From positions 52,514,001 through 52,578,000 of the forward strand of contig NC_092345.1 of NCBI RefSeq assembly GCF_963676685.1: a DNA stretch of 64,000 bases, written 5' to 3'. Shown here piece by piece: positions 24,406 through 63,905 of this stretch. A program made the position numbers and the translations under genes. Under the pieces are notes generated by a model that saw only the letters and a program-made list of their open reading frames with translations, searched no databases and had not been told where the DNA came from. Each line of letters starts with the position of its first letter. The stretch's first letter is position 1. The stretch comes from Mytilus edulis (Eukaryota).

Positions 24406-25867
24406 AAATATATATATTTGGGGTATTTGGAGAATTTGGTGGTTTTGATTGAACCGTGGTTTCTCTGTTGGTTTGTTTGCCTTGTTTTTACTCGATGTGA
24501 ATTAGAGAAGGATTTTTACCTTAATAATATGACAATACTTTCCACTTTTGAAAAGTTTAATGATCCATCACTGCTGGTAAGTGTAGCTACAGTTTAATTT
24601 TCGCTATTTTCGCGGTAAGAATAGAAAAGCGAAAATAAAACGACCGCGAAAGAATCGGGGAAACTCTTTTATTACATTTACTTTTACAAGTTGTGAATTG
24701 GATGGAGAAGTATCTCTTTGACACTCATACCACATCTTCATATATCTACGCATATGAATAAAACATATATAGGACTACTGTGTAACACTGATTTTATAGA
24801 CGACACATATATAACTGAAATCATAACTGTATCTCTTAATGAAAAGCAGTGTTAGAAGTTATGAATTTAATTTGAATCTACTACACATATTAATCAGATC
24901 GATTAATTATCATTAATCCTGGGAGCATTTTATCTAATTCAATCCTAATTAGGTCTACTTTTCTGTATTGTGTATGTGTTTTTACTAGCAAACATGACAA
25001 ACTTGTAATCTACTTTAACATTAATGAACCGAAAACAAGAGATTTCTGATTGATTTTATCACTTGATTTAAGATATCACTTTCCAAATCATTTATGAAAA
25101 TATATATATGGGCCAGGGAAATCGCGAATTGAAAACGGCGCGAAATTGGATTGTGTTAGTAAATCGCGAAATAAAGACGACGCGAAAATTTCCCGGTTTA
25201 CAGTATCAAATCGGCAATTGTTAATTACCTCTTCATTCAAAACTATTCATTCTTACCACGAGAACAACTAAGCTTATGCACTGAAAATGTTGTAAAAATG
25301 TATGACAATGCTAAAGAACCGGCTGCTTGGCGAACGGTAACATAAAGCTATGGTGAAAGTCTACAAGAAGTGGCACCCCTCGATTGATGGTTGTGCTTAG
25401 ATGTGTTATTCTAAGCAAATTGATGAACGACTTGATATAAATTATCCTGTTGATCAACAATACTAGCCATTTTTTTAACACCTGAACTTTTACTTTTGTT
25501 TATGACCATGTGAAAGACCAGTGAAACAGGAGTGTAATTATAACCTCAAGGCAATATAAATGAATTAGTATGACTTTAGATATAGAATTGAAAAGTTTTT
25601 ATAGTGGGTATCAAGACTTTTTTATCACAATATCCATATGATAAATTAGTGTACAAATTATAAGTGAAATTATGCTTTATTTTGTACAAATTGTAATTTG
25701 TACAAGGCTTAGCACTTTTTGTACAAATTATAATTTGTACAAAGTCAAAATACAAAATTTAATTTGTACAATTTTTTTTAACTGATATGATAATGATAAC
25801 ATGTACACAACATATACATCCCTAGCTTAAACCAAAGGAGACACAAAATGCAGATTTGAGATATAAA

Positions 25868-26445: not shown

Positions 26446-26784
26446 GTATTCGCAGTTACTGTCAGATTTTTCAAAGTCAATACCAACTAATAAAAACATA
26501 TACCGGGGTATCTAAGACTAAAATATCATACATGTACCATGTCATTTCAAAGTAAATACCCCCCTCCCCCCAAATAAACATTCAGTTGGTTATAGACATA
26601 GGAAGTGTACACGTACATCACGTGAATAAGGTTCTGCTAGAGTTGCATTCAGTTCTGACAAAACAACCGTGGCACAGAAGAAAGAACGGACAAACAAACA
26701 GAGGGACGGATGAATGAACGTCTTTTTTAAAAATCAGGTGGTATTTCATGTATAATGTACAGTATACATACCATACATGTATGT

Positions 26785-27875
26785 CATGTTCTTTCCGTTT
26801 TTAGATGGTGACGTTCCCTTGTCACCATCTTACGGTGTTTATATATCTCAACTTGTACGATTCGCTCGTGTATGTAACAATGTTTTAGATTTTAACGAGA
26901 GAAATTTATGTATTACTGAAAAATTATTACACCAGGGTTTTCGATATCACAAACTAGTCAAAACATTTACTAAATTTTATCATAGGTATAAAGACATCAT
27001 TCGTAAATATAGCTCAACATGCATACTTCTAATACGTTCAGATATTTCACATCCAATTTTTTATGGTAATATTCTTTATAAAGCACAAAGGTGTCAGTAT
27101 TCACCTCAGAAACTTACAAAACCTTTGAATAGACTTATTAAGAAGGGATATAATTACGATACTGTTGTCAAGTCATTAAAGATTGCATATTTTGGCGTTA
27201 ATATTGAGTCACTGATAAGGTCTTTGCATCGGAACTAAACACATTATTTTTTAAAAACAGTTGTTGGCATGACACGGGTTATGTTCTACTCATATATGTT
27301 ATGATGGTATGATACTAAACCCCTAACGGGAAGGATTGTGCCTGATGTTCATATGATGAAATCATAATCTTTCAGTCAGTTTAATTGAAGTCTGGAGCTG
27401 GCATGTCAGTTAACTGCTAGTAGTCTGTTGTTATTTATGTATTGTTGTCATTTTGTTTATTTTCTTTGGTTACATCTTCTAACATCAGACTCGGATTTCT
27501 CTTGAACTGAATTTTAATGTGCGTATTGTTATGCGTTTACTTTACTACATTGGTTAGAGGTATAGGGGGAGGGTTGAGATCTCACAAACATGTTTAACCC
27601 CGCCGCATTTTTGCGCCTGTCCCAAGTCAGGAGCCTCTGGTGTTTGTTAGTCTTGTATTATTTTAATTTTAGTTTCTTGTGTACAATTTGGAAATTAGTA
27701 TGGCGTTCATTATCACTGGACTAGTATATATTTGTTTAGGGGCCAGCTGAAGGACGCCTCCGGGTGCGGCAATTTCTCGCTACATTGAAGACCTGTTGGT
27801 GACCCTCTGCTGTTGTTTTTTATTTGGTCGGATTGTTGTCTCTTTGACACATTCCCCATTTCCATTCTCAATTTC
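26785..27875 (+). mobile_element. Penelope-like retroelement 3' part (RT C-terminal remnant ORF 26777..27238 plus 3' region)
   Basis: FPFLDGDVPLSPSYGVYISQLVRFARVC...EKLLHQGFRYHKLVKTFTKFYHRY resembles the C-terminal region of Penelope-like RTs. It is highly similar to 15120..16250 and to an older fragment at about 9465-9825. Confidence 0.75.
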
Positions 27876-29464: not shown

Positions 29465-30747
29465 TTAGACAAAGAGGCCATTATTAAACATAAAATCTCT
29501 TAATGAATTTCCAGTGGTATCTTCACCAACAAACGGGTTAACATTTTTACTACTATGATAGTTGTACTGATAATTCATTCCCTTTCTCAGCATGTCCCTT
29601 AAATCTGGCAGCCTCGTGTTTGGAAACATATTACTAGGATACATTCCGGGAAAAGATGGTTGAATTATTTCTGGCTTCAAAGTCAAATCTATCTTTTTAC
29701 CAGTTTTACAGTCACGTGTTTCGTCCGACTGTAGGACAAAAATTGGATCGCAACCGTCAGCAATTACTTTGCAGCCGACAGGTGCTAGATAAACTCCTGA
29801 GTTGATGCCGTATCTGCAAAATATAAAAATTGTCGTTAGAACTAATAGGTGTTGGATGTGTTTGAGGGATTGATAAGCACCCTGCCACGTCCGGTCCGTG
29901 TTTTTGGTAGACGTTTTTCTGCTTTGAATCGATCTGTGTTCTTATGTCGTGCAGTTTCATCACTTACTAAACGGTTCAATGGCAAAGATTGTTAACACAA
30001 GCAAATCCCCCCTTTTTTGCTCCCTTATAAAAAGCAAATAATTAGTCTACGTGTGTCATTTTGAGATAAGAAATGTCAATTCAAAAGCAATACAACTGTT
30101 TACGAAAAATACTTACCACTTAATGATTTTATATTGTATATGTGATTTCGGAATGGCACTTGGATGGACATTGAAAGCACTATTTTTTATGTAAATTTTA
30201 ATGTCGTCATTATACTGGTGTTATTACATGTAATTGCCATGCCTTTGACCCTCTTATGGGTGTAATTCGTGCTTTAATAAAGAACTATTTGCCCCGACCA
30301 CTGGCACTGGATGACTTGGGTATAAAATGTCCAGATAAAAGTAAAAAGTAATTAAACTTGCCCACAACAAGATAGTTGTCCGCTGTTTCTACATTTACAG
30401 TCCATACAATCTGCTGTTCTAAAACTGGATCCATCCAATATATCAAGTCCTTTGTATGAACATACCGGTATCAATCGTCCAGTCACTGGAAAAATAATAG
30501 TAACTCTTATTGAAATATGAAACAAAAATCTGAATAAACAATGCAGTTCTAAAGGAAATTTATCTTGTACTTTTTAAACAATAATTTTAAACATTCGTTG
30601 ATAGTTGCGGTATTTTTAAGAAGAGTTTAAAAAGCAGAAAAAAAATCTAAATTGAACTCTACCTGTTTTATCAACTCGACCAGAACTCTGATGGCAGAAA
30701 CCATTGACCAGTGGTAAAATCACGACCAGGAATATGAACGACTGCAT
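29465..30747 (-). CDS. Second secreted beta-microseminoprotein-like paralogue (3 exons, about 185 aa)
   Basis: Exons are 30747..30663 (MQSFIFLVVILPLVNG-FCH...), 30485..30362 and 29813..29465. Exon 1 and exon 2 lengths (85 and 124 nt) and phases match the first paralogue. The 10-Cys domain reads FCH...VCSYKGLDILDGSSFRTADCMDCKCRNSGQLSCCGYGINSGVYLAPVGCKVIADGCDPIFVLQSDETRDC. The intron 2 donor is GC (GG|GCAAGT). Confidence 0.85.
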
Positions 30748-37200: not shown

Positions 37201-40200
37201 TTGGGGGAGGGGGAGGAAAAGATTGGAAAGAGAAACGTATTTTCTGTTTATTCAACATTTAAAATTTAGGTAATATAACATCTTCCTCGGTTTATCTTTC
37301 TCTATAAAGCACATCATTGATGGAAAGATATTCAAAAGCAATTAATCTAAACTCAATAACCCTTTCATTTATGATTTTTTTTCATACAACGATTTGAAGG
37401 TACTCAAATTGTCAAAGTCTTAATCGTCACTTATTAAATAAAAAAAATGGGAATAGATTAAACAGAAACATTAAGAAAAAATCTACCATTAAATCGCAAT
37501 TTTACAAAAAGTCTAAACCCCAAAAAAGTTGTCAATTTAAAACTCACCAATGAAAGTCGTATTTCCCCCTTTCTTAGGATCCGTGGATTGCGGAAAATCG
37601 TCCACATCTAAAACGTTCACGTAAATTAATGACGTCATGTGTTAAAACAGTTATTGGCCAATCAAATCGGTATATAGAATTTAATCTGCACGCGCTCAGG
37701 ATGACCCTTTAACCCGAACTCCTACGTCGTTCGGGTTAATAAGGGTCACCTGAGCTGTGCAGATTAAATTCTATATACCGACTTGCTTGGTCAATAACTA
37801 TAACATATGCAAGGCGATAAATATTATAACTATTATGAACATATTTCATTTTGCATTGATATATTAAAAAGCCTGTTTTGCATCCATAAATACAAGTATA
37901 CCACTTTGTTTAAAATCACAACTCCTTCTTACTTAAAAATTAAAAACATGTTAAAGGGTAGATAATAGTCGTTCGATTAGGTTATTATATTGATATGTTG
38001 ATTCCTATTTGCTTTGTCCACAGAACAACTGAAACAGTAGTGGCAAGCCTATCAGGAGGTACAGGGAACTACTACTATTACTTATGTATGGCAATAACCC
38101 AGATAACATCACATTCATTTTATTACTACATCCAAGCAGGTATGTATGTATAAACGCCCTTCATTTCCCAATACCACTGAATTGTTTTGATGATTTTTAA
38201 ATATTTTTTAAGAAAATTTAGTATGATTATCAATATATGGTTGAAATAATTGTGTCTAAACCATGCAAATTTTAATATATTTGTCAACAATTTTATCGAC
38301 TGTATCCTGCATTTAAACACTTCTCATGCTCTACTTACAATTAAAATATTTTTGAGTCATTGGCGATTTTTGTTTGTAGCACATTTCCATCGTATTAAGT
38401 AGGTTCTTGCAAGGATTTTGATAAACAAACTGAGTCTGTCTTTCAAAACAAAACTATGTTTGAAAGCAGAACACGATGACTCTCCTTCATATCTCCACTG
38501 AGCAAAAAAGCAGATATAAAACCATCTTACTATTTAATATGTATAGGCATTAAGAACCAAATTGCAGGAAAATAATGCACACTAGTTAGATAAAATTATC
38601 TTTTACAGATGTAGATACTAATGGAGAAAGGACGATAGCCAAGCTAAGTTCGGAAACACCAGGTGTAAACGACATATGTACAACAACTACAGTGCCAACA
38701 GAAATTTTTCAAGTTATGGTTCATAAAGGTATAAAGTATTCATCTTTTCGATTTTCATATTTTCAGCCATCTTTGAGTATGACTTTTGTGCTCAAAATAT
38801 TCCTTCATTAGATATGATTTAAATCGTGATATTTTACCTCAATTAATTTGTGTAATGCTGATTTTTTTGTTTGACAAGATTTATTTTTATTTTTGACTTA
38901 TTACTAGTCACTAAATTGATAACACTTAGTGAATTTTGTGCATCAAAAGTTTAAATTGAAAATCCAAATGGGGAATGAATCAAAGAGACAAAAACCCGAT
39001 CAAAGAGCAATCAACAGCCGAAAACGGGCATCAGCTGGCTCTTAAACAAATGTTTGTAATAGTTTATACGCCATACTTACCGGTATGCCTTGTTTTAAGT
39101 ATTATATCTCTAAACTAGTTTATATTAACTATATACAACACTAACGATATTCATACAGAAATCTACACTAATTCGTAATTCTAACTTGGAAATCATCCAT
39201 AATAAACTTCTTTTAGATTATACAAGTAGTGCGGTGCAACAGTGTGCCACTCCTTTCCTTGGTAATTTCAAGTTCACGTTCGAAGATACGTTAGGCGATA
39301 CAAGTACAGGAAACATTACGGCATGTGATACTCTCAATACAGCCAACATATCATATGCAACAGGAGCATCAAACGAGCTTAAAGTAGCTTTTTCTGGTAA
39401 GTATGATTATTCAAATCACTAAAGACATTACCTGTTTCAGCGATTAAACCAAACATGTATTGCTGAATAGCTTTATCAAGTTCTGATATGTTTTTATATT
39501 GCTTATTTTTTTAACAAATAAGCCTTTGTTATGAGATCTTTGGTGGATCCTTTCGTTTCTCATTGTTCTTAAAATAAATTGAAAGGCAGTTTAACCGCAC
39601 GTCAGTTCTTTCCGTTGTACGACCAGCCTCTATTATTTTGACCTCTAGCTAGTTCATACACAAACAAAGCCGATACAATGAACACTATTTCTGTAGGTTC
39701 AGCGATATTACTAGTATTTCGGTTTGATAGAACGATCAAATATTAACAAAGTGTTGACAAATAATGGCCAATCTTCAGCTACAAACTCATATTTATGAAA
39801 TATTATGATGTAAACAATATCACACCTTTAGCGAATCACAATTTAACAAAAAGACTAAGTAAATATTTTTTGGATTCGTTGATGTTACATTGTCTCACAA
39901 TTGAATCCATTTGACGGAAGTATTTGGTCTTTTCAAGATAGAAATTTAATTTTCAAATTAAAAGAGGAAAGAGGGCGGTCAATTCAACCGTTTTTAACAA
40001 AACAGATACATGTATATTTATATTCATACGCTAAAGGTACAGTGAAACAGACAATAAATGAAGTACCTTTTAAAAATATAACTAACGCCAATTCCACAGA
40101 CATAAGTTTTTATTATATACTTAGTAGTAAATACAGATAAATTGTATGTGTAATACAATCATTGGCAAGCGTGCTGTATCAGCCACCCGTGATGATATCA

Positions 40201-43038
40201 ATATCAGCACGGTTGCAAAAGCTTTATCACACCTTTAATATGTATGACGTCACGTCATCGATTGCAGTCACTGTTGCAAAGGCTTTATCAAATACCTAAT
40301 CTGTATGACGTCATGTCAAACCTATAATATGTATGACGTCATTTCAAACCTCCTTATCTGTATGACGTCATGTTACATAAAAAAACATCTACATGAGGTA
40401 TACGTATATAATAAAGTGTATATGATATGGCTTTTTCAATATCACACACCATATCAACCCTCAACCAATATAATCCCTCGAGCAGAGTTCTTGGGATTAT
40501 ATTGGTGTCTCGGATTGATACGGATGCGATATTGAAAAAGCCATATGATATTCTCTATATATCATTTTCTACGTAATTGTAAGTCTAACCTGTCGCCGTG
40601 CATGAACGTCAGCAATATCACACTGCCGCAGTTTAAATTTGATTGAGCACTCGTTTAGTCGTTCGGCCACAGGTTGTCATATTTGGGCGTTTTTCAATAA
40701 AAACGTATTTTCTTGTCCCAGCCACTTTAAAAAAAATGTGTTTGATCTTTGCAAGTAATTTTTTTGTGCAGTCAGTACATTGAATTAGATTTAACATTTT
40801 TAAGCAAAGAAACAGTTTATTTTTAGAGGGATTGATAGATATTGACTCCTGAATGGTCCAAAAACAACCAAAATGGCATGTCCCTAGACCACCTGTTCAA
40901 CATTCATACTCTAAAATATCGTAAAAAAATGAAGAAATAAATCTTATTTTTACTTTACATAAGTTCTTTAATAATTCAAAAGTATGTTCAGAGACAAAAT
41001 ATTTTAATAAACAGCTTTCAATATAGGATTTTTAATTTCAGAAGGTGTGTCCCTCACAAAATGTCCACTACGAAACGAAGTCATTAAAATTTGCCAATAA
41101 ACAGTTTTATAAAATCAATGTAATTTTTGTTTGCAAGATATATACACATTAGGGTCTTACAAAAGAAGTGATGCTTTTATAACGGCAATTAAATTGTTGA
41201 TAAAAAATATTGAGCACATCAAATGGACCAGAGTGATACCGTATTTTTGTTAATGTCCACTACGAAACGGGTCAAATCTCCTTCAGTATCTGGTTTTAAA
41301 ATTATGAAAAAAATATCAGTGTACAGCTTAATAAATGCTTTGATGAATACAATCAGTCTTGTTACTATTGCAATATAGGGATTGTGGGGGAAAAAAATAA
41401 AACATGCGAATATGTCCCCTACGAAACGGTCCCCTACGAAACAAGTACGGGAGAAAAACGTTTCGTAGTGGACACTACCACTACCATGCAGTCTTTTTTA
41501 ATCTTTTTTTTCAATTATATTCGTGCTAAACAAATAACAAGGGTTAGTTTCATGCAATTTTTATTATGTTTTTATTAACATATAATAGGGTTGATGTCAA
41601 CTACGAAACTTTTTGTCCACTACGAAACGGTTTTGTCCACTACGAAACGCATCAAAATGTCCACTACGTAACATGAGTTGTACCTTCATATGTGAAGTAC
41701 TGTCTAATCTTTATTGATAAAAATGATTTTCCAATTCAGAAAAAAATGAGATTTTTCTAGTATTTAAAGTAAACAAACTGGAATGTCTAAAAGAAACATT
41801 TAAAATTGCAAAAAATATGTGTGTTTAGAAGAAACTTGTAAATTATGAAAATAATATCATTTTAAAGAATATTTAAGATTGCACTTTTTGTTTACAAACA
41901 GGTCTATAATAGAGGTATTCAAAATAACTCTTGAAATTAAATTTTAGACATGTTGATATTCCATTTTATTTAGGTCTGAAAGTTACGCTTTTATTGAAGT
42001 TCGCCCATTTATGATTTTCAAATATGTCGATTAGTTTTACTATTGTTATTACATGTATATATAAAACATGCAAATTCAAAAGAATCACGTAATTTATTTT
42101 TATTTAATCATTTTCTCCAACATTCAGACAGTAATTATTTTGGATGTGTTGTGAATATAGAATCTGGTTCTACATACTATTCAGCATGGTATAACTTTGA
42201 TTCAAACCCATCCAATGATTTCCACCCTCGATTTGCATGCGTGGTAAGGTTAAAACAGTTATAAAAATACATAGTCTCTTCATTACACTTCTATGCAATA
42301 CTTCAACCATCATAACCAGATAGGAAAGTAAAGTTTAACTTTGTTACATTAAAACAATAGAATGAACAGTTGAATTTACACATTGCGCTTAATTATATAT
42401 CGAAATAATTACATATTCATGATTGAAATCCAATTTTGCGTTAACTTGTGATATCGAGAATTTTGAGGATTTTATTTTCCAGTTTTGTATGATTTATCTC
42501 TCATGACGAGATCATCTTAGCGTGTTTCAAATATATGATTTTAAGCAATAAAGGTATTCCAGATTTTGATAAGCTTACGGGTGTTTTGTAATGTACCAAT
42601 GTTACTCTGCATTAAAAATGAAAAACCACAAAAATTAGCCTGACCTATTTTGCAATGCATTAAAGCAAAAGATACTATGTATGTATGTTAGCCTTGTAAT
42701 GTTTTTTTTTTATTTTTCATATTTACTCAGGTTTAGTTGTAGTAACGACACGTCAATACTAGCAATTTCGAATAAAAAAACTTCCATCAAGAGTCCGCAG
42801 GTTTTTTTTATTTCTTCATTTCAGTGTTGCGATTATCCAAAGAATCAATCTTATAATGAAAATTATTCCATTAGTTTATATAACAAATTAATTCTCGTAG
42901 ACGTAATTTATGGAAAAAAAAAACTTTAATATTCTTTCTTGCGAAACAAACAAAAAAATCACATTCAACTGATTTTGTTAATTGTATATCATTCTAACAT
43001 CAATATTCCAGTTACTGTATTCTATTTAATTTTTCTGT

Positions 43039-46400: not shown

Positions 46401-49400
46401 TAGTACCACTAACTTTTCAATCAAGCTAGACGTAACTAGTTGCCCTTTTTCGCAAACATTTCTCCACAGTTTTCAAGTCAAAGATTTAAGACTTGGATGC
46501 AACTTTCTGGATAAATTTCATTCCGTGGACCAGATTTCGAATATATTTTATAGAAATTATCTCATGAGATCTCTGTCCGCAATGGTGTCATGTTACGGTA
46601 GAATATTTCTCTGTATGCATTTCTAAAATTAAAAATTCTTCGTAACCTGGAATATGAAAATCAAATGGTAAAGGAATCCAAAAAAAGAATGTATACGTAT
46701 GCTGTATGAGTAATACAAGAACGTCCCAATACAAATTTACAACTGATACGAATACATTTGCCATCTAATAAATGTTGTTGCCTTAAAATGTTAACTATAT
46801 TACAATCTAGAAACAGAAGCAGAAGATAACAAGGAGACAGTCTTAACTGCAACTCGAAGAAACATACTAAATACCATGGCAAGAAATATAACAACAAAAA
46901 TAAAATATTACTCTACAAATATTACACACCAAAATTTAAAGTGGATATTGGGTTCTCCAAGAGAATAATAAGATCCTGCATATCTATCTATATCCGTTGA
47001 CACTTTCGAAGTAATGACCAACTTGCCTTTCTGAACCCCCTGCTCTATAACAGCCTTGTAAGCAGCAAGTATTTTTCGTGAAAATCGCGATAAAATATAG
47101 AAGCTCTGATGGAGATATGTACTCCATTTGAAAGAGCTGCAAGAATGTTGCAAAACAGAAATTGAAATTTCGTGATTAATCGTGATTAAAGGCTGAAACA
47201 TATATGCTGTCCAAGTTAATACCCCGAATAGTCGGTTTTAGTCAAATATGAAGATGAAATAACTGTGGATGCAATATCCTTTAGAAGCAATCAACATACA
47301 GTAGTTAATAAAGGAATAAATATTTAGTGAAATGAAATTGCCCCTATAGTGGTACGTGAAGGTACAAAATAATCCTAGCTACTTTTAATTCTTCTTGAGA
47401 AAATACTGTATATGGACACTAGACACTTTAAAGAGATACATATAGAAAAGTGAGCACAGTGAAAACAGGGTAAAATATGTATTCGAACTGTTTATTATTA
47501 TACTATCACATTTTTCTTTGTTTTTCAAGTTCCCACTACTGATTCTAGTGACTCATCTAATACTGGAGTCATCATTGCTATTGTGGTTATACTGTTACTG
47601 CTTATAATTGCTGTTGTAGCAGGAATCTTGTTCTATAAGTTTTATTATAAACCAAAACAAGATGAAAAGAAGAGACTCATTGAAGGTAAATTAATTAAAC
47701 TAAGATTATGAAATGAAAATTTTCCTCTTTTCATGTTTTCTTTTTCCGAATCCGTCCGCCAGTTATATAGTTCTGTAAAATTAGTACCTTTTAACGTTTT
47801 TTGATAGCATATCTCATGTGGAAATCAAATGGGGAAATCAAAGAAACAAACTTACATTTCGAACGAAAATTATCAAGAAGATTATCGGTTTTTAACGTAC
47901 AAATATAATAATAAATTAAAAACCAATTCTTCAGAGAACAATTGAAGGTCTTTCCACCTCGATAATAAGAATGAAATTTAAAAAAACGATGTTAGAAAAT
48001 GTCACTCCTTGTTGATGTAATTTGATGCTTCAAATTGATATAAAAAAATAAGATTAATAGGTATATGCAGAAGACTTAATTGTTTTATTATGAACAGAAA
48101 ATAATTTTTAGCAGAGGTCAAAATCTAGAACGTCAAATTGACCTTTGACTTTGACCTCAATTTCAAGGTCATAGGTCAGTGATCTCAAATCAAAAGACCC
48201 CAAGTCATTCATCTGTATAGTTGTGGAGTAATACTGATTTCAAATACATAAGGGGAGAAAACCCCCATAAGGGTTAACCAAAACACTTCCACTGAAATAG
48301 GTTGAAGTTGCGCCTTTTTGTAAACAGTAATTTGACAAACAAATCATATCATTAACTGTAACAGTTTCTTTTGAATAACGATAACAAGCAAAATTCAAAA
48401 ATTTATAACATGACATTGACCTTCGACTTTGATCTTAATGTCAGGGTCATAGGTCAGTGAACTCAAAACGGAAGACCGGAGGTCAATCACTTGTGTGGTT
48501 GTGGAGAAATACTGATTTGAAATACATAAGGGGAGAAAACTCCAATAAGGGTTAACAAAAACACTTTGACTGAAATAGGTTGAAGTGCCTTATTGTAAAC
48601 AGTTATTTGGCAAACACATCATATCATTTACTGTCACAGTTTCTGTAGAATAACGATAACAAGCAAAATTTAAAATTTAGAACATGACCTTGACCTTTGA
48701 GCTTGACCTCAATTTCCTTCAAATTGACCAAGGACTTCATATCAAAGGACTGTAGGCCTCTACGACTTATAACGTATGAATTTATCCAACAAATCGCCTA
48801 TCTTAAATTTTCAAAGGGAAATAACCCCCACAAGATGTCTTCTGATTACTCAAGTCAAAATAAACCAAATCATTCTCAAGAGTAGACGAACAATTTGGTA
48901 AAAACAGTTTGCTAAAATCTTTTAGAGATATAGCGATAACAAGAAAAAGGGGACGCCGGGAGATAACTCCTGTAAGAAAAAGTGTTCGGTCACACAGGGT
49001 GAGTTTTGTAACCCCCATTACTGTACAACATCATTAGCCTAAAAATCCATTCGATATGTTGTAAGACAAAAAAGCATCTCAGACGGCAGAAGAAGAAGAA
49101 AAAAATAATCAGAAGAAAAACAAAAGGTCTTTCCACGAAAAGTGGAAAGACCTAAATGTTACCGCCGACACTATGTAAAGCGTTTTTGCTCATCGTACAT
49201 CTTTCGTAGTTTGATATCTATTATTCTTGCCTATCTCTGTAATCAAATTTGATATTTATATAAATTTAAAATTTCTTTCAGAGCAAAAAAAACCTAGGAG
49301 CCATATTGGAATGATGAGGAAAGCAGTGGATTCTGGCATTGGTGGAGGAATTCATAAAGAGAAAGAGAAGATCGATATGATAAATATGGTAGACATAGAT

Positions 49401-50276
49401 GATGATGATGGGATAGAGGGTAGCATAACTGGTATAAATCCCGATAAATTCCGGGAACATAACAATAATATGAAGCTTAGTGCAAGTTTTATTGGCACTT
49501 CCACCCCTGCAACGCCCAGTGGTGTCGATGCAGATTTTTCAGATCCTAATTCCGTACCAGAAAATGGTAACTCGAAAGAAAAACCAAAGCTAACTTCTGG
49601 ATTCTCGGCAAATATGCAAGGAACAACTTCGAATGAAACGCCAAGAACAGCTGCGGATTTGAACGGTCATATCCCAAATGGGCATTTATCAGGAGAAATG
49701 GCGAAACAACCAGTTAACAAAGGGAATGAGCAAAACGGACAAATTCCAAATGGAAATACACCAGGAGATAAGACAAATCAAGCCGTCAATGCTGGACAGC
49801 CAACAGCAGTGACGAATGCAGTCGTGCATAATAGTACAAGTGGAATCCGGAGAGAAAAATCTATCATGAAGCCTGCGACTAAAGACGGTGAAGCGTTGAA
49901 TGACAAGCCTGTTTTTAATGTACCTACGGAGAAAAAGACGACAATTGCTACAATTAACCCATACACAGAGGAAAAGCCCACAATTCCTCAACCAACAGAG
50001 GACGATAAGCGGGAAGATAAATTAAGAAAATCTGTATCTTTTGCGCCTGATAAACCCGCCATAACTTCAAATTCGTCCTCAAATTCAAACAATGCTCCAC
50101 CTGGCATTTTAAACATATCAAAGGAAAAAACAAGTTTACCTGGTGCCATTCAAGACGTTCCTGATACCCTTATTACGCTTCCACGTGAACGGTCTAACCT
50201 TCTTGGTCCTAGGGATACAACATTACCGGAAATAGACTTAAAGAAAAACACAGCACCAGATATGTCAAACTTTTAA
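34251..50276 (+). CDS. Uncharacterised single-pass type I membrane protein: signal peptide, Cys-containing two-module ectodomain, TM helix and long disordered cytoplasmic tail (10 exons, about 694 aa)
   Basis: Exons 34251-34314, 35437-35611, 38024-38139, 38609-38728, 39217-39396, 42128-42243, 43082-43235, 45804-45812, 47530-47685 and 49282-50276 are all GT-AG and phase-compatible (total 2085 nt). Signal peptide MGIYFYILIYVGCLSILPNRIDG. Modules begin CTFPSYMTGTW and CATPFLGNFKFTF. The TM segment GVIIAIVVILLLLIIAVVAGILFY is followed by basic KFYYKPK. Confidence 0.85.
37600..37802. mobile_element. Long-hairpin element (third family)
   Basis: Palindrome GTTATTGGCCAA...TCGGTATATAGAATTTAATCTGCAC...AACCCGAAC-loop-GTTCGGGTT...GTGCAGATTAAATTCTATATACCGA...TTGGTCAATAAC at 37650-37798. 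The right half recurs at 15416-15501. Confidence 0.65.
40140..40560. mobile_element. Long-hairpin element (fourth family) with a TGACGTCA-rich tail
   Basis: Palindrome ATATGGCTTTTTCAATATC...GATATTGAAAAAGCCATAT at about 40424-40546, preceded by four TGTATGACGTCA motifs at about 40240-40370. Confidence 0.55.
41060..41672. repeat. Cluster of dispersed GTCCACTACGAAACG motifs, likely subterminal repeats of a decayed DNA transposon
   Basis: The motif or close variants occur at about 41063, 41255, 41414, 41429, 41596, 41615, 41635 and 41659, with one inverted copy at about 41459. Confidence 0.6.
43042..43080. repeat. (TA)n microsatellite directly abutting the exon 7 splice acceptor
   Basis: About 19 TA units end in the acceptor AG at 43080-43081. 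A second (TA)n lies at about 43408-43440. Confidence 0.95.
43890..44740 (+). mobile_element. Degenerate Penelope-like retroelement RT fragment (second family)
   Basis: MLDFLIDNIFVEFGGLVFQQTIGIQMGTNCAPLLADLF...FRYIDHVLSLNN (YIDD-type motif mutated) and TKIYDKRADFNFPIVNFPFLCNNIPAAPAYEIYVSQLIRYSRAS, broken by stops and frameshifts. Confidence 0.85.
46990..47260 (-). mobile_element. Highly decayed Penelope-like RT C-terminal fragment
   Basis: An alternative minus frame reads AALSNGVHISIRASIFYRDFHEKYLLLTRLL*SRGF, resembling the PAYGVYISQL...DF.ER..LLTQKLL.QGY segment of the 43890 element. Confidence 0.45.
48110..49155 (+). mobile_element. HINE/Helentron-like element with about 276-bp internal tandem units
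   Basis: Units anchored on GACCTTTGACTTTGACCTCAATTTC at about 48140, 48418 and 48692, followed by an AAG-rich tract and the 3' hairpin AGGTCTTTCCAC-GAAAA-GTGGAAAGACCT at 49125-49153. Confidence 0.7.
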
Positions 50277-50399
50277 AAGTGTATAAATGATCATGAGGAT
50301 ACAATACATTTACATTTAATTTATGTTTGTATGATTATAACCATGTCTCTTGTCATTTGACGTATAAATCAGCTTGGATTTTAAATATTTTGGCCGCGA

Positions 50400-50443
50400 G
50401 CATCACTGAAGAGACATGTATTGTCGAAATGCGCATCTGATGC
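50400..50443 (+). ncRNA. Minimal type I hammerhead ribozyme (Penelope-associated type)
   Basis: GCATCA (stem I) - CTGAAGA (CUGANGA core) - GACA tgtat TGTC (stem II) - GAAA - TGCGCA (palindromic stem III) - TC (AUC cleavage triplet) - TGATGC (stem I'). All core nucleotides are intact. Confidence 0.85.
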
Positions 50444-52729
50444 AGGAAAATTGGTACCGTTAATGGTATTATACAATATTTATAATTTCCAGACTTTTTT
50501 AATTATTCAAATTTGTCAAGTAGAAAACTTTTTTTTTGTAATATAAGGTAAAAAATATTGTTAAGGCATCAAGTCTTAGTTGTGAATTTTTTTTTTAACA
50601 AAAAGTGAACTTCTGATACCAACCTACTCTTTCTTGTTACGAAAAGATGAAATTAAATTCAAAAACGTCCTAGTTTTGGTAAAAACAAATAAAACGGAAA
50701 GCAATACTGTGTCAATAAATCTCATATTCAAGCTTTTTGAATACACTGCTTTAAAAAAGTGTAACTATGCCTTTTAACAACCAAGTACAGCATACTTGCC
50801 AATTGAGTTTGAAACGATCAACAACATGCGAAGATCAATGGCAGAAGATAAAACAATATCACTTCAATTATTTAGATATATTAAATTTTAATGGCAAGAC
50901 ATATGATTCCTTTCGATTTTATTCAAACATGTTGCTGTATAAGTTTATTTTTATATGTACCAATGATTAAAATGCGAAAAGATAAAAGGATTCGTGAATC
51001 TTAAAATCACAATTATGTGTTTTGCAATAGTTCACGATTTCCGACAATAAGACGGAAACACTTCATTCTGAACCCTCTCATAGACCGGATAAGCATACAC
51101 ATACATCAAGAGTGGTTCGAAAGGAACTGTGGCCAACAAAACCTTAAAATAAAAACGTATCATTCTAATCAATAATTTTTATATTCACAGACTTGAACAA
51201 GAAAAGGGAATTGTTAATAATAGTATGCATACTGTATTTTGAAACTTGTTAAATCTTACTAAATACTGCAGAGCATATTATTTATGTGTATAATTTTCTA
51301 ATGTAATTTTTAAAAAACTATGTTCGTGGTTTTGAATTTTCTAAAAAATATATTCGATATAAATTAATCATGACTTATTTTTTCAATCTATGAGTGTGAC
51401 TGTCCTTCTGGTATCTTTCGTCCCTCTTTTATAAATTTCTTTAAAGTATTATGGTGTGTTATGCTTTCTATGTCTCTAAAATACTGAACATGTAATGCAT
51501 ATAAGTCAAACTGTGTACCTTTTTACCGAGGATAACCTAGAGTCAACATGCTACAGGAACTCTCAAATGAATATTGCGACATGATAACTCGAACATAAAA
51601 TTTATTTTATTACAAAATAGAACATACAAAAACAGATTAGTTTGAAAGAAGATATTTGTCTCACATGATAATTATGAACGTAAACTGGAATATAAAAAAA
51701 TGAAATGAAAAAAGACAACAACAAAAGAATAAATGCGTTTGAAAAGGTGAATAAAAAGTGGTCTTACAACAAAAAGTAAATTAACAAAACCACCAAACTC
51801 CAAGGTAAATTTAAAACGGTAAGTCCTCAATGAAATTGCAAAATCAAAAATTCAAACACATCAAATAAATGGAAAAGTACTGTCAGATTCATAACTTGGT
51901 GAAAGCATTTTCTAATGTAGAAAACACCAATTACAAAATTCATATTGAAAAGTTTGAACTTTTACAGTTATGCAGCTGAGAAATTAAAAAAAAAACTTTT
52001 CTAAATGTCGCTTTTTGAAAGATTTTCTTTGTAATGTATTGTAATATTCATCATCGATAAACCGAGTTATCAGACTTTGACTACATAAACGATATGATAC
52101 ATTTTGCAGGGCCATATTATACTGTGTCAGTATTAAAAAAATATAAAAAGAAAAATTTAGAAAACGTTGATACCATCTCTGTTATATATATTTTGCTAAT
52201 TTCTGATATGAATTTGCCCAGTATTATATATTATTGTGTGAATAAAAGTTCTATAAAATAGTTTTCTTAAAATTAAATTGACCAAACACTACAATTTGCT
52301 TTCATTATTTGTAACATGCAAAACTTGATTTATTTTTCTGTTCATAGGCAAAAAGTAAAATAACAAAAAACACGAATTCTGAGCAATATTCTAAACGGAA
52401 AGTACCTAAGCAAATGTAAAATCACAAGCTCAAACGCATCAAACAAATGAATAACAGATGTCATATTCCTGACTTGGTACAGACATTTTCTTATGTAAAA
52501 ATGGGGGATTAAACCTGGTTTTAAATCTAGCTAAACCTCTCACGTGTATAACAGACGCCTAAAATTCCATTATATTCACAATGATGTGTGAAAAAAACAA
52601 ACAGACATAGTAGGTAAAAATGTCAAAAATAGGGGTACAGCAGTCAACATTGAGTTATAACTCTTCTCTTTACGTTATATCTTTCAAATTTATTAACACA
52701 AGTCTATTCACCTGGAATCATCATATGTT

Positions 52730-55700
52730 TCAACCACTTATCATTTTAATATTGTTTCTTGGAATCTTGTCAAATAATAAAAATCCTGCTGCCCTTTCGA
52801 TCGATTCTAGAGGTACTAGGTATTTCTTCAATTTAACATCTTTTGGTAGCGGTTGATTCGGCAATACAAAAGGCATAAGTTCATACTGTCCTTGGTTATT
52901 TTCTATCAACATAACCTTGAAGAAATGTGTTGGAACGGCTACGTTATTTTTACCAATTACTTCATACTTTACATACACTTTGCCATCGTTTTCACGTCTG
53001 CAAAAATAAAATAACATACATGTATTTAAGTGATCTACTTCATCTGAATAACTATCCAATTCCATGTAAACATACTACCAAACGACATAATTGTAACCCA
53101 TGAAGCGACACCGTCAGATGTCTTTTGTTTTGGGGGTGTTTTTTTCGGTGGCAGAGTTGTTTATGTAGTTAACGTACTAGCCTGTCAACACTAAGGTTGT
53201 GAGTTCGAATCCGGCAAGTGGCAGGATAGTTCGACTCCAATCTTAGTTGACTTGGATTGTCAGTTTTCCTATCGAAAGTCTGTGGTTCTTTCTGAGAACT
53301 CTAGCTTCCTTCATCATAAAGACTGACCCCCATGAAATAGCACAATAATGCTGAATGTGGCGTAAACATCAATCTGGGGTTTTTATGTTGCTGGGTTGCT
53401 GTCTCTTGTTTGTACTAAATGTCTTTTTTTTTGTTATTTCAATAAGCTTTCAGAAAAAAATATATAGTGTATGGTTATGTTTATGTTCTGCTCTATTGAC
53501 TTTGTGAATTTAACAAATGAAGATCTCAGACGGAAAAGTAGCAGATATCTACTGGGTTTTTTTTTTAAGTCTATCTTTGTCAACTTCGTGAAAAAAGAAA
53601 CATTTTGAGCAGATTTCAAAAGTTTACACCAAAATTCCTCTCCATTATGCTCAATTCGTGCGAATGAAGATCTCAGTGACAGAAAAGCACCAAGTTCTCT
53701 ACTGGTTTTTACTTGGTTTAATAGTTTTATCATCTTCGTAAACACATTCAAAAAATTGAGTAGTCAAACCAAAGATGAAACAAATTTATAACAAAAACTC
53801 CACTCTGTACATATATGGTAAATGTCATTATTATGTACTATGAAAAACTAAACCAAAATCATTTGAACGAAGAAACACATGTTTTTCCACATATCACCGA
53901 AATCAAAGACAAAAAGATACCCATCCTTTTATTTTTTATTTATTTATGCATCATTTAAAAAATTGTAAATTCAATACATTTTTCACTTTACCAGTTTTAT
54001 GTAGGCATACATGTACGAAAACACATGTGCTTCAAAGAAACGAGAAAAACACATTTCATTATTGTAATTCAAACGAAACAATTATGTTGCAAAAACGGGT
54101 CTATTGACTATTGTTCTGATTTTTTTTTATAGTTTACGGAAAATGTATGAGTTTTCAGTATAGATATGATGGTGTTCATATGTACTCAATATTCCTTACA
54201 GACTGCTTGTAGAGGCGGATTTAGGGGGAGCAGGGGGCATCGGCCCCTTTCTTCTGGGAGAAAATGGTTGATTATAAAGGGAATCATTGAAGCATCACTG
54301 GAGCGGGCCCCCTCTAAGCAGTCAGTGGGTCCCCACTTAAAAAAATCTGGATCCGCCACTGGCTTGCTGCTTCTTTTTGTGCATGATAATTTAACTTCTA
54401 CAGCTATCTATAATAGACATTCTTGGAAAATTACAACGGCAATGATCGACCACTTGCCATCTAAATTTTATAACTGGACACATATAAAGAGTTGACAAAA
54501 GGCAACCGAAACTCTTTTCATACAATTTCTAAAAGGTTAAAAGATATAGCATAGACAAAGGAAGGATTAAATTACCAATACTTGTTTTCTTTCTTCCTAT
54601 ATCCATTTAGTATTTCGAAAACATGAATTTAACTAATATAAAACTCTTCATTAATAGAAATTCAAAAATAAAGTATTGCATGTTACCTTGGGAGATAGAG
54701 AGGCCCTGTACAACAGTACACATTTCTGCTTTGTCTGGCTTTCGCCCGGACATACTTTTCCAAATCATTCCAGGCATCTCTATTGAACCCCTCTCCGACC
54801 TATTCGAAAAAAGTTGACAAAATTAATGAAAATAAATTAGAATGAAAATTCATGTCCAACAACATGCTAGACGTATTTGACAAAGCAAATAGACATTTGC
54901 AACTCATATTTACTAAAAAAAAATTGTATGATTTTAGCATTTAGTACTTTAATACCTGTAGCTACGTTTCAGTGTATGACCTGGCTTCAACTGAAAATAC
55001 CTATTTCTATATTGATGATATTACACACTTTGTATATATGGATAAAAAATGGTGTGCGGGGTAAACATTCATGAGAAGGCAACAGTCGATTTACACTATA
55101 CCGTCATGCATATATAGTTCCTTAACTTTAATTTTATAACTCTGGCAAAAGTTAGTCAGATATGAATTATATTAAAACTATACTGTAAACCTGGAATAAT
55201 TTATTTTCAGTTGCATTTCGAGAGCAAATAGCGTGTCCTTGTAGTTTTATAGCCATTGGCCATACCTATCACCCATCAGTTTTCATTTGCCAAAAATTAT
55301 CAAAAACTTTATCAAAATATCTTGAAATTATAGCTTTTTGTTTAATTCTTATATATAGATTAGATGTTAGCTTACATTTGTGTGTACTTGTATATCTTGT
55401 AAATTAACAGCTTCCAATCTGTATTTATTGGGTAGTACAGGCAATAATATTAGAGTGTAGGACCGCATGATTGTATATTAGCAGGATGAATATTTTAGTT
55501 ACTGTTAGGATCATTTTTAATTATTAAAGATAATTAATCTTTTCATTAAAATTTGGATGAAATGCAAAATTATTGTAAGTAAAACAAACACGAAATATTA
55601 TTGTCATATTTAAATGTTTTAGTTTCATAATATAAATGATATAGCTTATGTTGGAGATGATAGGTCGTTTAGGCTGGTTTTTTTTTTTTTTTTTTTTTTT

Positions 55701-56865
55701 TTCTTGATAAACAAAATGTTTTAGAACAAAGCGAATTTACAAAATATCTGTTTACATGGTTTAATTCCATTAAAAATTTGGGGGAAATATATACAATATT
55801 GGGTTTTCTAATAAAATCCTCCCTGTATATCATTGAAAAATAAGTTGACATATATGTTATAATTCGGTTAAGTTTCACCTCTAATATCTTATCTATTTGT
55901 CAGTGTTCTTTTCATGTATTTATATCTTTTTATTCTTCATTCTTCAAGTCAGATTTTTTTTTAATAAAGATTGTTTTATCTTTTCGGCAAAAATCCCTGT
56001 TAACTTTAAATATACAGACTTGTAAAACATAGTTATACATGTAATATATGCAGAAATGTACGTGTATGCTTTTATCTAAAATACATCAAGCTATGATAAA
56101 TTTAGAAAGAATTTTGCTTGATGACCTCTATACATTTTGAACATGCATGTAATTACATGGAAGATACTTTTTTAGTCTACCGAAATAGCTTGTCAAGATT
56201 ATTTCTTTTATTGTATATTACAACAGAACCCTGTAGGGACTTCCAAAAACCTGCATATATGTGTACGCAAAATACTAAAGAACCAAAACTAATAAAACTA
56301 CCTGAGGTGATACATTGCTGAGAGTAAAAGTCTGGTCCATAGCTTTCTGTGTGTGGCGATGGTTAGCTGCCGCTGCAAGATGTCCTTTGTCATAGCCACT
56401 GTTTTTGAAGTCATTTTTTGTAGCCCGGAAGAAATTGTGGATGATGTTGTCTTCCAGAAATTCTGATTTACCTCTCTTGATGTTTTCATTCTTCATAACA
56501 TGCTCTGGTTTAATGTGTTCAAATACCCATTGGGCATTCCTATTTCTTCTGTCATAGGACAGTACAAAATTGTCAAATGATCGAACTTGATCCAGACTAG
56601 GAAAGCCAAACTTCATGATTTCTGAAACGCGATTTACTGGTTGTGGAAAAGCTGCAGGCATACTTGTACTTGTAGTGGCAGGAATAGACGACGAGGCAAA
56701 AACTGACGGAACGAATAATGCTTTGGTGTCAGTCAAGGGTAACAAATGAGTTAGAGGGTCTTTATTTTCCTTCTTCAGTTTTTCATATTTGGTACCAAAG
56801 AATAAACCAATTCCCATAGATGCTCCACAAAGGCTGGCAGTTGTGATAAAACGAACTCTTGACAT
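52730..56865 (-). CDS. ENDOG: Endonuclease G, mitochondrial (3 exons, about 314 aa)
   Basis: Exons 56865..56302, 54799..54687 and 52997..52730 are GT-AG and in frame. Motifs are IMKFGFP, FVLSYDRRNRNAQWVFEH, SGYDKGHLAAAANH, TFTLSNVSPQ|VGEGFNRDAWNDLEKYVR, CTGPLYLP, YVKYEVIGKNNVAVPTHFFKV and VPLESIERAAGFLLF. Confidence 0.95.
53147..53373 (+). mobile_element. tRNA-derived SINE (Meta/MESC-like 3' part) in EndoG intron 2
   Basis: A-box-like GGTGGCAGAGTTG, B-box GAGTTCGAATCC at 53201-53212, and a 3' region CATGAAATAGCACAATAATGCTGAATGTGGCGTAAACATCAATC. Confidence 0.6.
54210..54361. mobile_element. Short hAT-type MITE with 5-bp TSD
   Basis: Termini TAGAGGCGGAT...ATCCGCCACTG, with TSD GCTTG at 54205-54209 and 54362-54366. 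Confidence 0.7.
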
Positions 56866-57300
56866 GTTCGTGAATAATCCAATGTCAACACTGACAACGT
56901 GCTAGATAATGAACCGGATGTTCAATAAAATCCAAAGTAAATAATGATGATTAACATACGGAATATTTATTTCATTAGTTAAATCTGTTTGTACATTTAT
57001 CTTTAATGGACGTTCTTAATTCTTTCTTATTTAACAGTTTTTGCATGGATTTTTTTTCTCGTAATTTTTTTTTATATAAAGAGGACTTCAGCTTAACAAA
57101 GCTTTTAAAAAGTATATTTAGACCTATTAAACTGTGGAAGTAAAAAAAGAACATGACAAAAAACAACAAAATCCAACTTGCAATTACAAGCTAACGGTCA
57201 GTCTTTTTTTAAGATGTTTGGTTTCGGTTGCGTGAATTGTTTATTCATCGGTAGTTGTTTATTATATTTAGCATAAATTTTGCAAGATTGATTAGCATTA

Positions 57301-59910: not shown

Positions 59911-62900
59911 ATGCACTTATTTATTTTGATTATTTTGCTCATTGCAGATTTTGTATATGTTAACAGGTCAGTACATGTATGTAATATATATTCACTTTGA
60001 CTCACCCAAAAAGAAAAAAAGACAAAATGAATTTGGTATGCACCAATAGGGAGGTAATAAAGTTAGCATTGATATAATATTAATAGGGTTGCAGGAGCGG
60101 TTTTATGTTTCAATTTAAAACATTAAAATGCATCAAAACAAAATCTGGCAATAAAACTAGCCTTTATACAAACAAGTATCTGGTAATCGATCCATCTTGA
60201 TAAAATTGGAAAAGATTGACTTTTCTCCGAAAGAAGGAATATCTGATTCATGGAAGAGACGCATTAAAAAAAGTAAATATGGAGGTTTGAACAATATTTA
60301 AGCGGTTTTCACGTATTCATGAATTGCCAAGAAATTTGAAATCAGAATATGGAAAAGTTTATATTGTCTTAAGCAAAAGATAAAAGCGTGCCTTTTTAGT
60401 GTTCTCGGTGTCTTAGGTGGCTGAGGTTATATTTGATAGATTTGTTTTTTTTTAAACCAGAATCAGAGATTATAGACTCCATGCTGAAGCATATGTCGCC
60501 TGCCAAAAGTTGAAATGTTCGAAAATTAAGATGTATAGAAGATCTGTTGCTTAGAATTATCACCAAACACAATTTTTATTTTAAAAAATACATTAATTTC
60601 AGTCAGGTATAAGAAGTGCAATATTTAATTTTAGTCAAACGACACCAGGGTATAATTTGAAAGCTTTGGGAGTCAAGGAATTTTTACGTTTTGATGCCAA
60701 CCATGATGGAACCATTACTTTAAGCGAATGGGAAACTGTTCTTCGAGGAGATGATGATGATGGTAAGTCCAATAAATGTTCAATGAAAACAGCGATGTTG
60801 GAAGGTACGGTATGTGCTCAAAGGAACCGGCGATGTTGGAAGGCACGTTATGTGCTTAAAGGAACCGGCGATAATGGAAGGCACGGTATGTGCTCAAAGG
60901 AACCGGTGATGTTGGAAGGTACGTTATGTGCTCAAAGAAACCGGCGATGTTGGAAGGTACGGTATTTGCTCAAAGGAACCGGCGATGTTGGAAGGCACGT
61001 TATGTGCTTAAAGGAACCGGCGATGTTGGAAGGCACGGTATATGCTCAAAGAAACCGGCGATTTTGGAAGGTACGTTATGTGCTCAAAGAAACAGGCGAT
61101 GTTGGAAGGTACGTTATGTGCTCAAAGGAACCGGTGATGTTGGAAGGTACTTTATGTGCTTAAATGAACCGGCGATGTTGGAAGGCACGGTATGTGCTCA
61201 AAGGAACCGGCGATGTTGGAAGGTACGTTATGTGCTCAAAGAAACCGGCGATGTTGGAAGGTACGTTATGTGCTCAAAGGAACCGTCGATGTTGGAAGGC
61301 ACGGTATGTGCTCAAAGGAACCGGCGATGTTGGAAGGTACGGTATGTGCTCAAGGGAATCGGCGATGTTGGAAGGCACGGTGTGTGCTCAAAAGAACCAG
61401 TGATGATGGAAGGTACGTTATGTGCTCAAAGGAACCGGTGATGTTGGAAGGTACGTTATGTGCTCAAAGGAACCGACGATGTTGGAAGGTACGGTATGTG
61501 CTCAAAGGAACCGGCAATGTTGGAAAGCACGGTATGTGTTCAAAGGAACCGGCGATGTTGGAAGGCATGGTACGTGCTCAAAGGAACCGGCGATATTGGA
61601 AGGCACGGGATGTGCTCAAAGGAACAGGCGATATTGGAAGGCACGGGATGTGCTCAAAGGAACAGGCGATATTGGAAGGCACGGGATGTGCTCAAAGAAG
61701 ACGATGATGATGGTAGGTACAATGTATGCCTAATGAAAACGACGACATCGGAAGGTACAACAAATGCTCAGAGAAGACGACGAGGTCTGAAGGTACAGTA
61801 TGTACTCGGAGGAGACGACGAGGTCTGAAGGTACAGTATGTACTCGGAGGAGACGACGAGGTCTGAAGGTACAGTATGTACTCAGAGGAGACGAGGTGTG
61901 AAGGTACAGTCTGTACTCAGAGGAGACAACGAGGTCTGAAGGTACAGTATGTACTCGGAGGAGACGACGAGGTCTGAAGGTACAGTTTTTACTCAGAGGA
62001 GACGAGGTCTGAAGGTACAGTATGTACTCAGAGGAGACGGCTAGGTCTGAAGGTACAGTATGTACTCGGAGGAGACGAGGTCTGAAGGTACAGTATTTGG
62101 TAAGAGGAGATGATGATGACGGTAGGTACAGTATTTGCTCAGAGGAGACGATGATGACGGTAGGTACAGAGTTTGCTCAGTAAAGATGATGACAATAGGA
62201 ACGATGTACATGCATGCTCAGAAGAGACGACGAAATTTGACAATGATGACGGTAGGTGCACATTTTGCAAAGTAAAGTTGACGTTGACAGTAATTTTTAG
62301 GGACGATGAGAAGGTGAGATTGACACGATTAGCGAAACATGATCTTTATAGCTCAAAAATATTGGATTACAAGAAAAATCATTGTCAATGTTTATGTCAT
62401 TTCCAATTTAATTTATCCATCTGCTAGTTGCTAGTATAAATCTTTGTCACTGTCTAAGTAAATTTTAATGTTTTTAGTTTTGATATTGACGACTTAATTT
62501 CTGTGATAGGTTATATTTTTGATACACACTGTACATCATTTTATTAATTACTCATTAATTTTGTTATTCTAGAGAGATTAAATCTTAAAAATATTCCCAA
62601 ATAGTAAAATAATTTGAATATGTACTTGTCTATATTACTTATTTTCTGGTTTTGTAAAAAAATGCCCTGAAAGACATCATTTTGGTAAGATGTTTGATTT
62701 TATCGCCAGCAAAATTGTATTTTTTTCCAATAGGTGACGGAATCATAACTTGTGACGAGTATGTTCGTCATTCGTCATCACCACATGACATTGCTTTAGG
62801 AGTACTGAACCAATTCAATGGCGGCGATTGTAAGTTAACGCACGATGAAGGAATGGTTCCATATCACCACATGGACGGAAACGGTAAATGTTTACTTATA

Positions 62901-63905
62901 TTATTTGTGATAGCCAAGTAGTGAAATATAAGTATCTATTTAACCTTTTTTCGTTAGAGTACACTTACCTTTTATTTCAGTTCGTATAAAATTTACAAAT
63001 GTATTATGAAAAAAGAAGAAAAGTGAGGATAATTAATGTAAAATAACTCTTTAATACTTCTCTGCGCTCGAAGCGCTTTTATTGGTTACCATTCATCAGG
63101 AACTCCCAGAGTAAAATATTTAAAAGCCAAAAAAGTACAGAAACAAGAGATGAGTTCCATGGCCCAACACAATTCTAAGGGTGACATCCAAATAACATAA
63201 GTTGAAGGAAAACACGCCATGGGGAAAACAGATATACGAAAATTCCACAAAATACCACATAGGATATATACTATTACAAAATATAGGCAATTCGAGTCCA
63301 ACATAATACCGGTGACAGATACTTGACTGGTCCATAAGCTCCTGCTCTACTAATGACACCCATTGTGTTGTTCATGGCCGGTAAAAATACTATGATAAAT
63401 TATCTTCTGTGATGTCGCAATCAGTGAACAGCACAGAATAAATGCTACGCCAAATTAAAAAACATATGTATGGTACTCTGTGAAATTCATTAACCATCAA
63501 CCAAGTCGTACATTTTTGTAATTACTGTAACTTACTATTAAGAGCCTCTGGTGCAAACGTTTCCTTGTAGTAAATGGAAACTATTGGAAACACAAGTCTT
63601 GTATAATGTTTCTACTTAGGAAATGAATGTTGACTTCATTTGTTTGTTAGAACTAGTGTGTTGATGCAAAGACATTAAAAATTCATAATAGAATAATTAA
63701 AATCGTCTTTCTTGACTGAAAGTTATGTAAAGTCATTACCACAGCTGGGATTATCCGTTGCTATAAATTAAGAAAACATATTTCTTTTTTTTTCATTGTT
63801 TTAATTGTTTAAAGAGCCTTTAAGAATAGATTTAATAACTGTTCGTTATTTATTTCAGGTGATGGAATTCTTCAAGAGATTGAGTTTATAAATTTCTACA
63901 TTCAG
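59911..63905 (+). CDS. Secreted EF-hand calcium-binding protein (shell-matrix EF-hand protein-like); 3' end lies beyond the window
   Basis: Exons 59911-59966 (signal peptide MHLFILIILLIADFVYVNS), 60635-60762, 62734-62883 and 63859-63905 are GT-AG and in frame. EF loops are DANHDGTITLSE, DDDG|DGIITCDE, a degenerate NGGDCKLTHDE, and DGNG|DGILQEIE. No stop codon occurs before the last donor. Confidence 0.85.
60775..62260 (+). repeat. 38-bp minisatellite with three sequence subfamilies in intron 2 of the EF-hand gene
   Basis: Subfamily A GCTCAAAGGAACCGGCGATGTTGGAAGGTACGGTATGT (about 60790-61695, about 24 units). Subfamily B GTACTCGGAGGAGACGACGAGGTCTGAAGGTACAGTAT (about 61765-62100). Subfamily C GAGGAGA(T/C)GATGATGA(T/C)GGTAGGTAC (about 61695 and 62100-62260). 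Confidence 0.95.

Follow-up and report, generated by a model that had tools for sequence, protein, structure and literature searches.

A type I hammerhead motif in a retrozyme fragment within the likely 3' UTR of a Mytilus edulis membrane-protein gene

The host gene and its hammerhead motif

The stretch of Mytilus edulis DNA analysed here (64 kb, called the window; all positions refer to it) carries on its plus strand a single-copy, uncharacterised Mytilus membrane-protein gene. Its last coding exon lies at 49282-50276 and terminates with a TAA stop codon at 50274-50276; among database proteins it matches P0001 of Mytilus galloprovincialis (98%) and P0002 of M. trossulus (91%), both uncharacterised. 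A hydrophobic stretch, predicted to form a transmembrane helix, is encoded by the exon at 47530-47685 (plus strand) and has the same sequence in P0001 and P0002. In Pfam, no family scored above the cut-off for the host protein, with weak matches to DUF7043/DUF7044 (E 0.0025) in one exon. The gene end and the downstream UTR gave one genomic match each, and the genome search revealed no second copy or haplotig of either. The likely 3' UTR occupies about 930 nt of the plus strand (50277-51209), its end being approximate (contigs of the runs X1, X4 and X5, described below, reach 51199-51269). The nearest canonical signal before these contig ends, AATAAA at 51148-51153 (plus strand), is the likely poly(A) signal used. 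An endonuclease G-like gene (52730-56901, minus strand) converges on the host gene, and a sulfotransferase gene is located at the window start (29-3508, minus strand).

A type I hammerhead was found at 50400-50443 (plus strand) by a descriptor search of the window and by the Rfam model Hammerhead_1. The core elements CUGANGA, GAAA and NUH occur there in type I order together with helices I-III, and this was the sole descriptor match on both strands of the 64 kb. Stem I consists of six Watson-Crick pairs (50400-50405/50438-50443) and stem II of 4 bp (50413-50416/50422-50425) with a 5-nt loop; the core strands are CUGAAGA (50406-50412), GAAA (50426-50429) and AUC (50435-50437). Thus, the complete type I hammerhead of the original prediction is present at its place, with stems, core and AUC all recovered by the descriptor. 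The palindrome of stem III, previously given as 6 nt, turned out to be longer: it comprises 8 nt (50429-50436, plus strand), which would form 2 bp with a GCGC loop in the monomer and 8 bp in a dimer. Cleavage is predicted between 50437 and 50438 on the plus strand (C17 by hammerhead numbering), 161 nt past the stop codon. The motif starts 124 nt downstream of the TAA stop, the distance claimed before, and, again as claimed, it precedes the first canonical poly(A) signals (ATTAAA at 50652 and AATAAA at 50688), with just TATAAA, at 50282 and 50363, upstream of it.

When a 191-nt stretch was compared with RF00163 (Hammerhead_1), the model was fully matched (positions 1-45); the score, 32 bits with an E value of 1.5e-06, lies slightly below the gathering score of 34. 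The Rfam scan of the whole window gave nine matches and no hammerhead among them; it was the narrow 191-nt scan that detected the motif. The minimum-energy fold of 50370-50460 does not include the hammerhead, and 195 of 200 shuffled sequences fold at least as well.

A mussel retrozyme family and its fragments in the window

The motif lies within a 5'-truncated, single fragment of 107 bp (50365-50471, plus strand) of a mussel non-LTR retrozyme unit of about 350 bp. Identity to the family units amounts to 93.5%, and the match is confined to 50365-50471; the flanks, unique in the genome, are the host exon and unique UTR. A 40-nt motif of the fragment occurs in 2,969 exact copies in the 1.37-Gb genome (2.2 per Mb), with no occurrence of the reversed control. 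Many of these copies lie 350 bp apart, which is the measured length of the unit, and a second core was found within 840 bp in 17 of 40 family copies taken in genome order. The units have no ORF and a low GC content. The proposal that the cassette originates from a mobile element was therefore well founded, the element being a high-copy retrozyme.

The 3' end of the fragment falls at +34 from the cut site, the usual end point of the family: four close copies in an even 1-Mb genome sample end at +33, +33, +34 and +36, and the 30 of the 40 genome-order copies without an adjoining next unit share this end point, as judged by eye. The clipped 5' end is common to many family copies as well. A search for target-site duplication, also by eye, gave only an imperfect A/T-rich match (50363-50369/50470-50477). 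The window copy is not a whole unit between two hammerheads, and it represents a derived fragment, not a working element; having a single hammerhead, it could not release a circle.

A sister family, set apart by another palindrome and by stems that co-vary, accounted for seven intact motifs in the 1-Mb sample, vs three of the window copy's family, which gives about 10 intact motifs per Mb; one further descriptor match (L072) fits neither family and was excluded from this number. Stem III is palindromic in both families, with a sequence that differs between them. Both families likewise have U-G as the third pair of stem I (loci L050, L063, L095, L098 and L108 together with the family A copies).

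These features fit a fragment of the published mussel non-LTR retrozyme kind, an assignment made by architecture, copy number and host genus. In M. galloprovincialis, about 5,000 type I hammerheads were described, in two families of non-LTR retrozymes with repeats of 350-390 bp, expressed as circles (PMC7229834, Cervera and de la Pena 2020). The repeats found here resemble them in residing in a Mytilus genome, in the thousands of type I hammerheads, in the two related families and in the tandem units of about 350 bp, whereas the window copy differs from them as a lone 107-bp 3' fragment, located in a 3' UTR and incapable of forming a circle.

The hammerhead had previously been ascribed to the minimal class known from Penelope-like elements, and this part of the prediction failed. 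Minimal Penelope hammerheads lack helix III, combine a helix II of 7-8 bp with a helix I of 4-5 bp, carry an additional base ahead of helix II and sit in pseudo-LTRs beside a reverse transcriptase ORF (PMC4209133). The window motif shares with them the type I topology, the palindromic stem III region and the possibility of dimerisation. Its helices of 6, 4 and 2 bp with a palindromic loop and its full core are those of canonical metazoan type I motifs (RF00163; PMC4209133), and its element is a retrozyme fragment. The minimal Penelope class was rejected on the helix lengths (6/4/2 bp) and the lack of an extra base before helix II, and a Penelope pseudo-LTR beside an RT/GIY-YIG ORF was rejected because the flanks are a host exon and unique UTR.

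Three other decayed cassettes had been noticed in the window, and two of them proved to be hammerhead-like with a broken core. One is a decayed copy of the same retrozyme family (11667-11794, minus strand, 83% identity); the other, at about 63060-63139 (minus strand), belongs to another repeat type, with four similar pieces in the 1-Mb sample. The third was not recovered; instead, there are two retrozyme-family fragments without the ribozyme part (12651-12692 and 17256-17367). The cassette at 63060-63139, together with L078, L099, L124 and L125, represents a third type of hammerhead-like repeat, which has a distinct palindrome and a stem II that is weak.

Intactness of the UTR copy had been taken as a possible sign of selection. 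This interpretation is not supported, as thousands of copies are intact, and relative to the nearest relatives one change falls within the 44 positions of the ribozyme core and six within the 64 positions of the flank, a core/flank contrast that is not significant as a test for selection at the locus (Fisher p 0.24). Across the family, the core is far more uniform than the flank (2,969 exact cores vs 221 exact occurrences of the 3' flank in its nearest variant). In the 1-Mb sample, 11 pieces cover the motif: the four close copies are all intact, and the remaining seven are 69-79% alike and are older or belong to the sister family. With 2.2 (exact) to about 10 (intact) motifs per Mb, half of them sense, and 3' UTRs assumed to total 20-35 Mb, about 20-175 genes would be expected to carry an intact sense motif by chance, so that an intact copy in a UTR needs no special cause.

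Presence in RNA and predicted folding

Contigs covering the locus were examined in four of 24 runs, belonging to four studies (X1, X4, X5 and X13); these runs are RNA by guess, as are 14 candidate runs in all, none being recorded as RNA. The contigs behave as expected of spliced RNA: in X4, one begins at a splice acceptor and is preceded by 98 foreign letters, and two intronic/intergenic bins of unique sequence have zero cover in all four runs. Contigs that begin in the coding exon reach the motif in three of the four (X1, 50019-50426; X5, 50010-50412; X13, 50095-50426), and in three the downstream UTR is covered (X1, 50410-51209; X4, 50410-51199; X5, 50599-51269). Cover extending past the first poly(A) signals points to AATAAA at 51148 as the signal in use. 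The proposed location of the motif inside the 3' UTR in sense orientation is thus made likely by likely-RNA contigs on both sides of it, which are themselves strandless. Contigs show neither the ends nor the strand of RNA, and the cut fraction is beyond what their depth can measure.

Passage of RNA across the cut site could be followed by a rare letter. The A50440 variant is found at 12 places in the genome, and the UTR contigs of X1 and X4 are the only ones in their runs bearing it. Both run from 50410 to about 51200 and thereby cross the cut site, with 28 letters on its 5' side, below the 31-letter rule applied. Their presence in two of the four runs argues that uncut RNA exists; we regard it as a hint of such RNA and not as a measure of its share. 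No single contig in the four runs links the coding exon with the downstream UTR, and the X13 contigs end at the hammerhead, beyond which this run has no cover.

The cassette was found under two organism labels (X1, X5 and X13, the last carrying the second label) and hence is no private new insertion. In X4, a contig at about half the exon depth (record 19) departs from the reference at 50288, 12 nt past the stop codon, and diverges from it for 266 letters; it perhaps represents a second UTR allele that lacks the cassette here. Another transcribed locus of the fragment is apparent in X5, where a 1,017-nt contig (record 30) contains the cassette at its positions 876-972. The summed depth of cassette-bearing contigs reached 1,600-7,200 at 50440, vs 5-65 over the coding exon. 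Partners for the pairing in trans that had been proposed are therefore probably plentiful, although similar depths are attained by other repeats of the stretch.

In the isolated 44 nt, stem I is predicted to form with a probability of 0.93, and adopting the hammerhead fold in context would cost 2.4-5.0 kcal/mol in seven windows. Stem III as a lone hairpin is predicted to be unstable (+4.7 kcal/mol) and the palindrome duplex to be stable (-10.5 kcal/mol); hence, a dimer is possible, and the capacity to dimerise through the palindrome, claimed earlier, agrees with this prediction. The accompanying claim that dimerisation is needed for efficient cleavage is not supported by the published work. 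A cloned mussel repeat, which may or may not belong to the window copy's family, underwent co-transcriptional cleavage at about 0.1/min (PMC7229834), and a review by the same group states that cleavage in the monomeric form is the rule for most invertebrate type I motifs (PMC7761336). The motif published for mussels is described as slow and as devoid of most bases for the tertiary contact between loops 1 and 2 (PMC7229834).

The window copy appears to fold more easily than its relatives. Its predicted fold cost was 3.2 kcal/mol, whereas for 40 genome-order copies, none of which was as low, the median was 6.8 and the lowest value 3.9, in a test that was chosen after seeing the data, relies on a nearest-neighbour model and compares the fragment mostly with younger copies. 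The genome-order copies had been added because, in 29 loci picked by likeness to the window, the majority reflects the nearest subvariant and not the family consensus. Among near relatives, zero to five of 37 were as low, depending on the window. Three of the six substitutions, T50382, A50440 and G50466, each lower the predicted cost and account for most of the effect; A50440 turns the U-G pair of stem I into U-A. Introducing family letters at all six changed sites raised the mean cost from 3.3 to 8.5 kcal/mol. The easier predicted folding would thus come from three changes that weaken competing folds. In a null model that placed seven changes at random, 150 of 1,767 simulated copies kept a strictly intact motif; six of these 150 folded as easily as the window copy and 144 less easily. 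Any ageing copy tends to lose the competing folds of the element. Moreover, the U-G pair is kept in both families, so its loss need not help catalysis. The modelled folding raises the odds that the window copy is active, without showing selection.

Origin and significance of the UTR copy

In the light of the anatomy, family, truncation and shared 3' end point of the cassette, and of the likely-RNA contigs on both sides of it in the UTR, the probable explanation is that a 107-bp retrozyme piece landed in the UTR by retrotransposition and persists as a near-neutral passenger which cuts, at most, a part of the transcripts. A Penelope-type reverse transcriptase may have copied part of a retrozyme RNA into the UTR, a route proposed in PMC7229834. 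The lone hammerhead would fold, alone or paired through its palindrome, and then cut after C50437, giving a tail-less 5' piece with a 2',3'-cyclic phosphate and a 3' piece with a 5'-OH, both of which would decay. Since cleavage would be slow, most messages could survive. The easy predicted fold, the small number of simulated copies that remain intact, the occurrence under two organism labels and the stop of the X13 contigs at the hammerhead count against the passenger interpretation.

Alternatively, the motif may be active and unselected, with a sizeable part of the transcripts cleaved and the output of the gene lowered, as a tolerated regulatory allele. We consider this rather unlikely. An intact core, a predicted fold easier than in all 40 sampled copies, the U-A pair replacing U-G in stem I, and the changes at 50382 and 50466 that weaken competing folds are what such activity would lead one to expect, and the mussel monomer construct is reported to cleave in vitro (PMC7229834). 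The missing cover downstream of the motif in X13 is also consistent with such activity, but it may reflect a different allele or a filtered record. Against this explanation, contigs of X1 and X4 cross the site, the downstream UTR is covered in three of the four runs, and the U-G pair retained in both genomic families implies that its loss may bring no catalytic gain.

Co-option of the copy as a regulator, kept and unlocked by selection and tuning the mRNA, possibly via palindrome pairing with retrozyme RNA, appears improbable. The three of six substitutions that lower the fold cost, its increase from 3.3 to 8.5 kcal/mol with the six family letters, and the six of 150 simulations folding as easily could be read as traces of selection, and the depth of cassette contigs (1,600-7,200 vs 5-65 for the coding exon) could be read as a supply of pairing partners. 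A precedent exists in the UTRs of Clec2 genes (PMC6155905). There is, however, no excess conservation of the core, the copy was noticed for its intactness out of thousands, and the folding test was post hoc and built on a nearest-neighbour model. The possible cassette-less allele in X4 also speaks against co-option, and in the mussel circles described so far the motif is predicted to be masked by the circle itself (PMC7229834), which would limit pairing in trans. A domestication still under way, in which a fragment freed from its element is unlocked by three substitutions that abolish the folds silencing the family copies, the poly(A) tail is trimmed off the mRNA and abundant retrozyme RNA acts as a switch via stem III in trans, would be similarly hard to credit.

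That the motif lies outside most of the mature mRNA, owing to upstream polyadenylation at TATAAA (50282/50363) or to downstream cover derived from another transcript, would be in line with runs that are RNA by guess only and with the lack of a contig spanning the whole UTR, but it is scarcely credible given that, in three of the four runs, contigs connect the coding exon with the motif, and given the exon depth of only 2-4 in the convergent endonuclease gene and the uncovered interval at 52094-52245.

If the passenger interpretation holds, the locus merely adds a fragment to a published repeat and is of little consequence; tens of 3' UTRs in mussel genomes should contain an intact hammerhead on the sense strand. 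The window copy is nevertheless a good test case, because it has a rare letter by the cut site, an unusually good predicted fold and possibly a cassette-less allele. Should regulation of the gene prove true, it would be an invertebrate parallel to Clec2 and a link of retrozyme RNA to host gene control. As in mammalian Clec2 (PMC6155905, PMC7761336), a hammerhead in a 3' UTR would be able to detach the poly(A) tail from the coding part of the message. The Clec2 motif is described as a discontinuous type III ribozyme kept across mammals, whereas the window motif is a compact type I ribozyme inside a high-copy repeat fragment. The literature searched yielded no account of a retrozyme hammerhead at work in a mussel UTR, nor of such copies cutting host mRNA in vivo.

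Several other features of the window deserve mention. On the minus strand, two related last exons, apparently of paralogous genes, lie at 10684-11556 and 29465-30573, the former with a tandem coding repeat of 72-bp period. SECIS_1-like Rfam matches on the plus strand were obtained at 27291-27355, 15654-15718 and 12023-12093 (32.3, 30.2 and 26.1 bits, respectively; gathering score 35). They sit in copies of a dispersed repeat, one of them 53 nt past the stop of an ORF at 26756-27238, which we take to resemble the end of a Penelope-type reverse transcriptase. A Pfam search of this ORF gave no reverse transcriptase match. SECIS-bearing Naiad elements were reported in clams and spiders (PMC8557442). 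An apparently intact LINE-like element occupies 19292-24501 (minus strand), with a 486-aa ORF followed by a 1,208-aa ORF with endonuclease and reverse transcriptase domains. Five long imperfect palindromes (6758-6898, 14266-14386, 25650-25770, 37649-37799 and 40411-40560) are presumably MITE-like, and a 1.5-kb minisatellite is present at 60746-62233.
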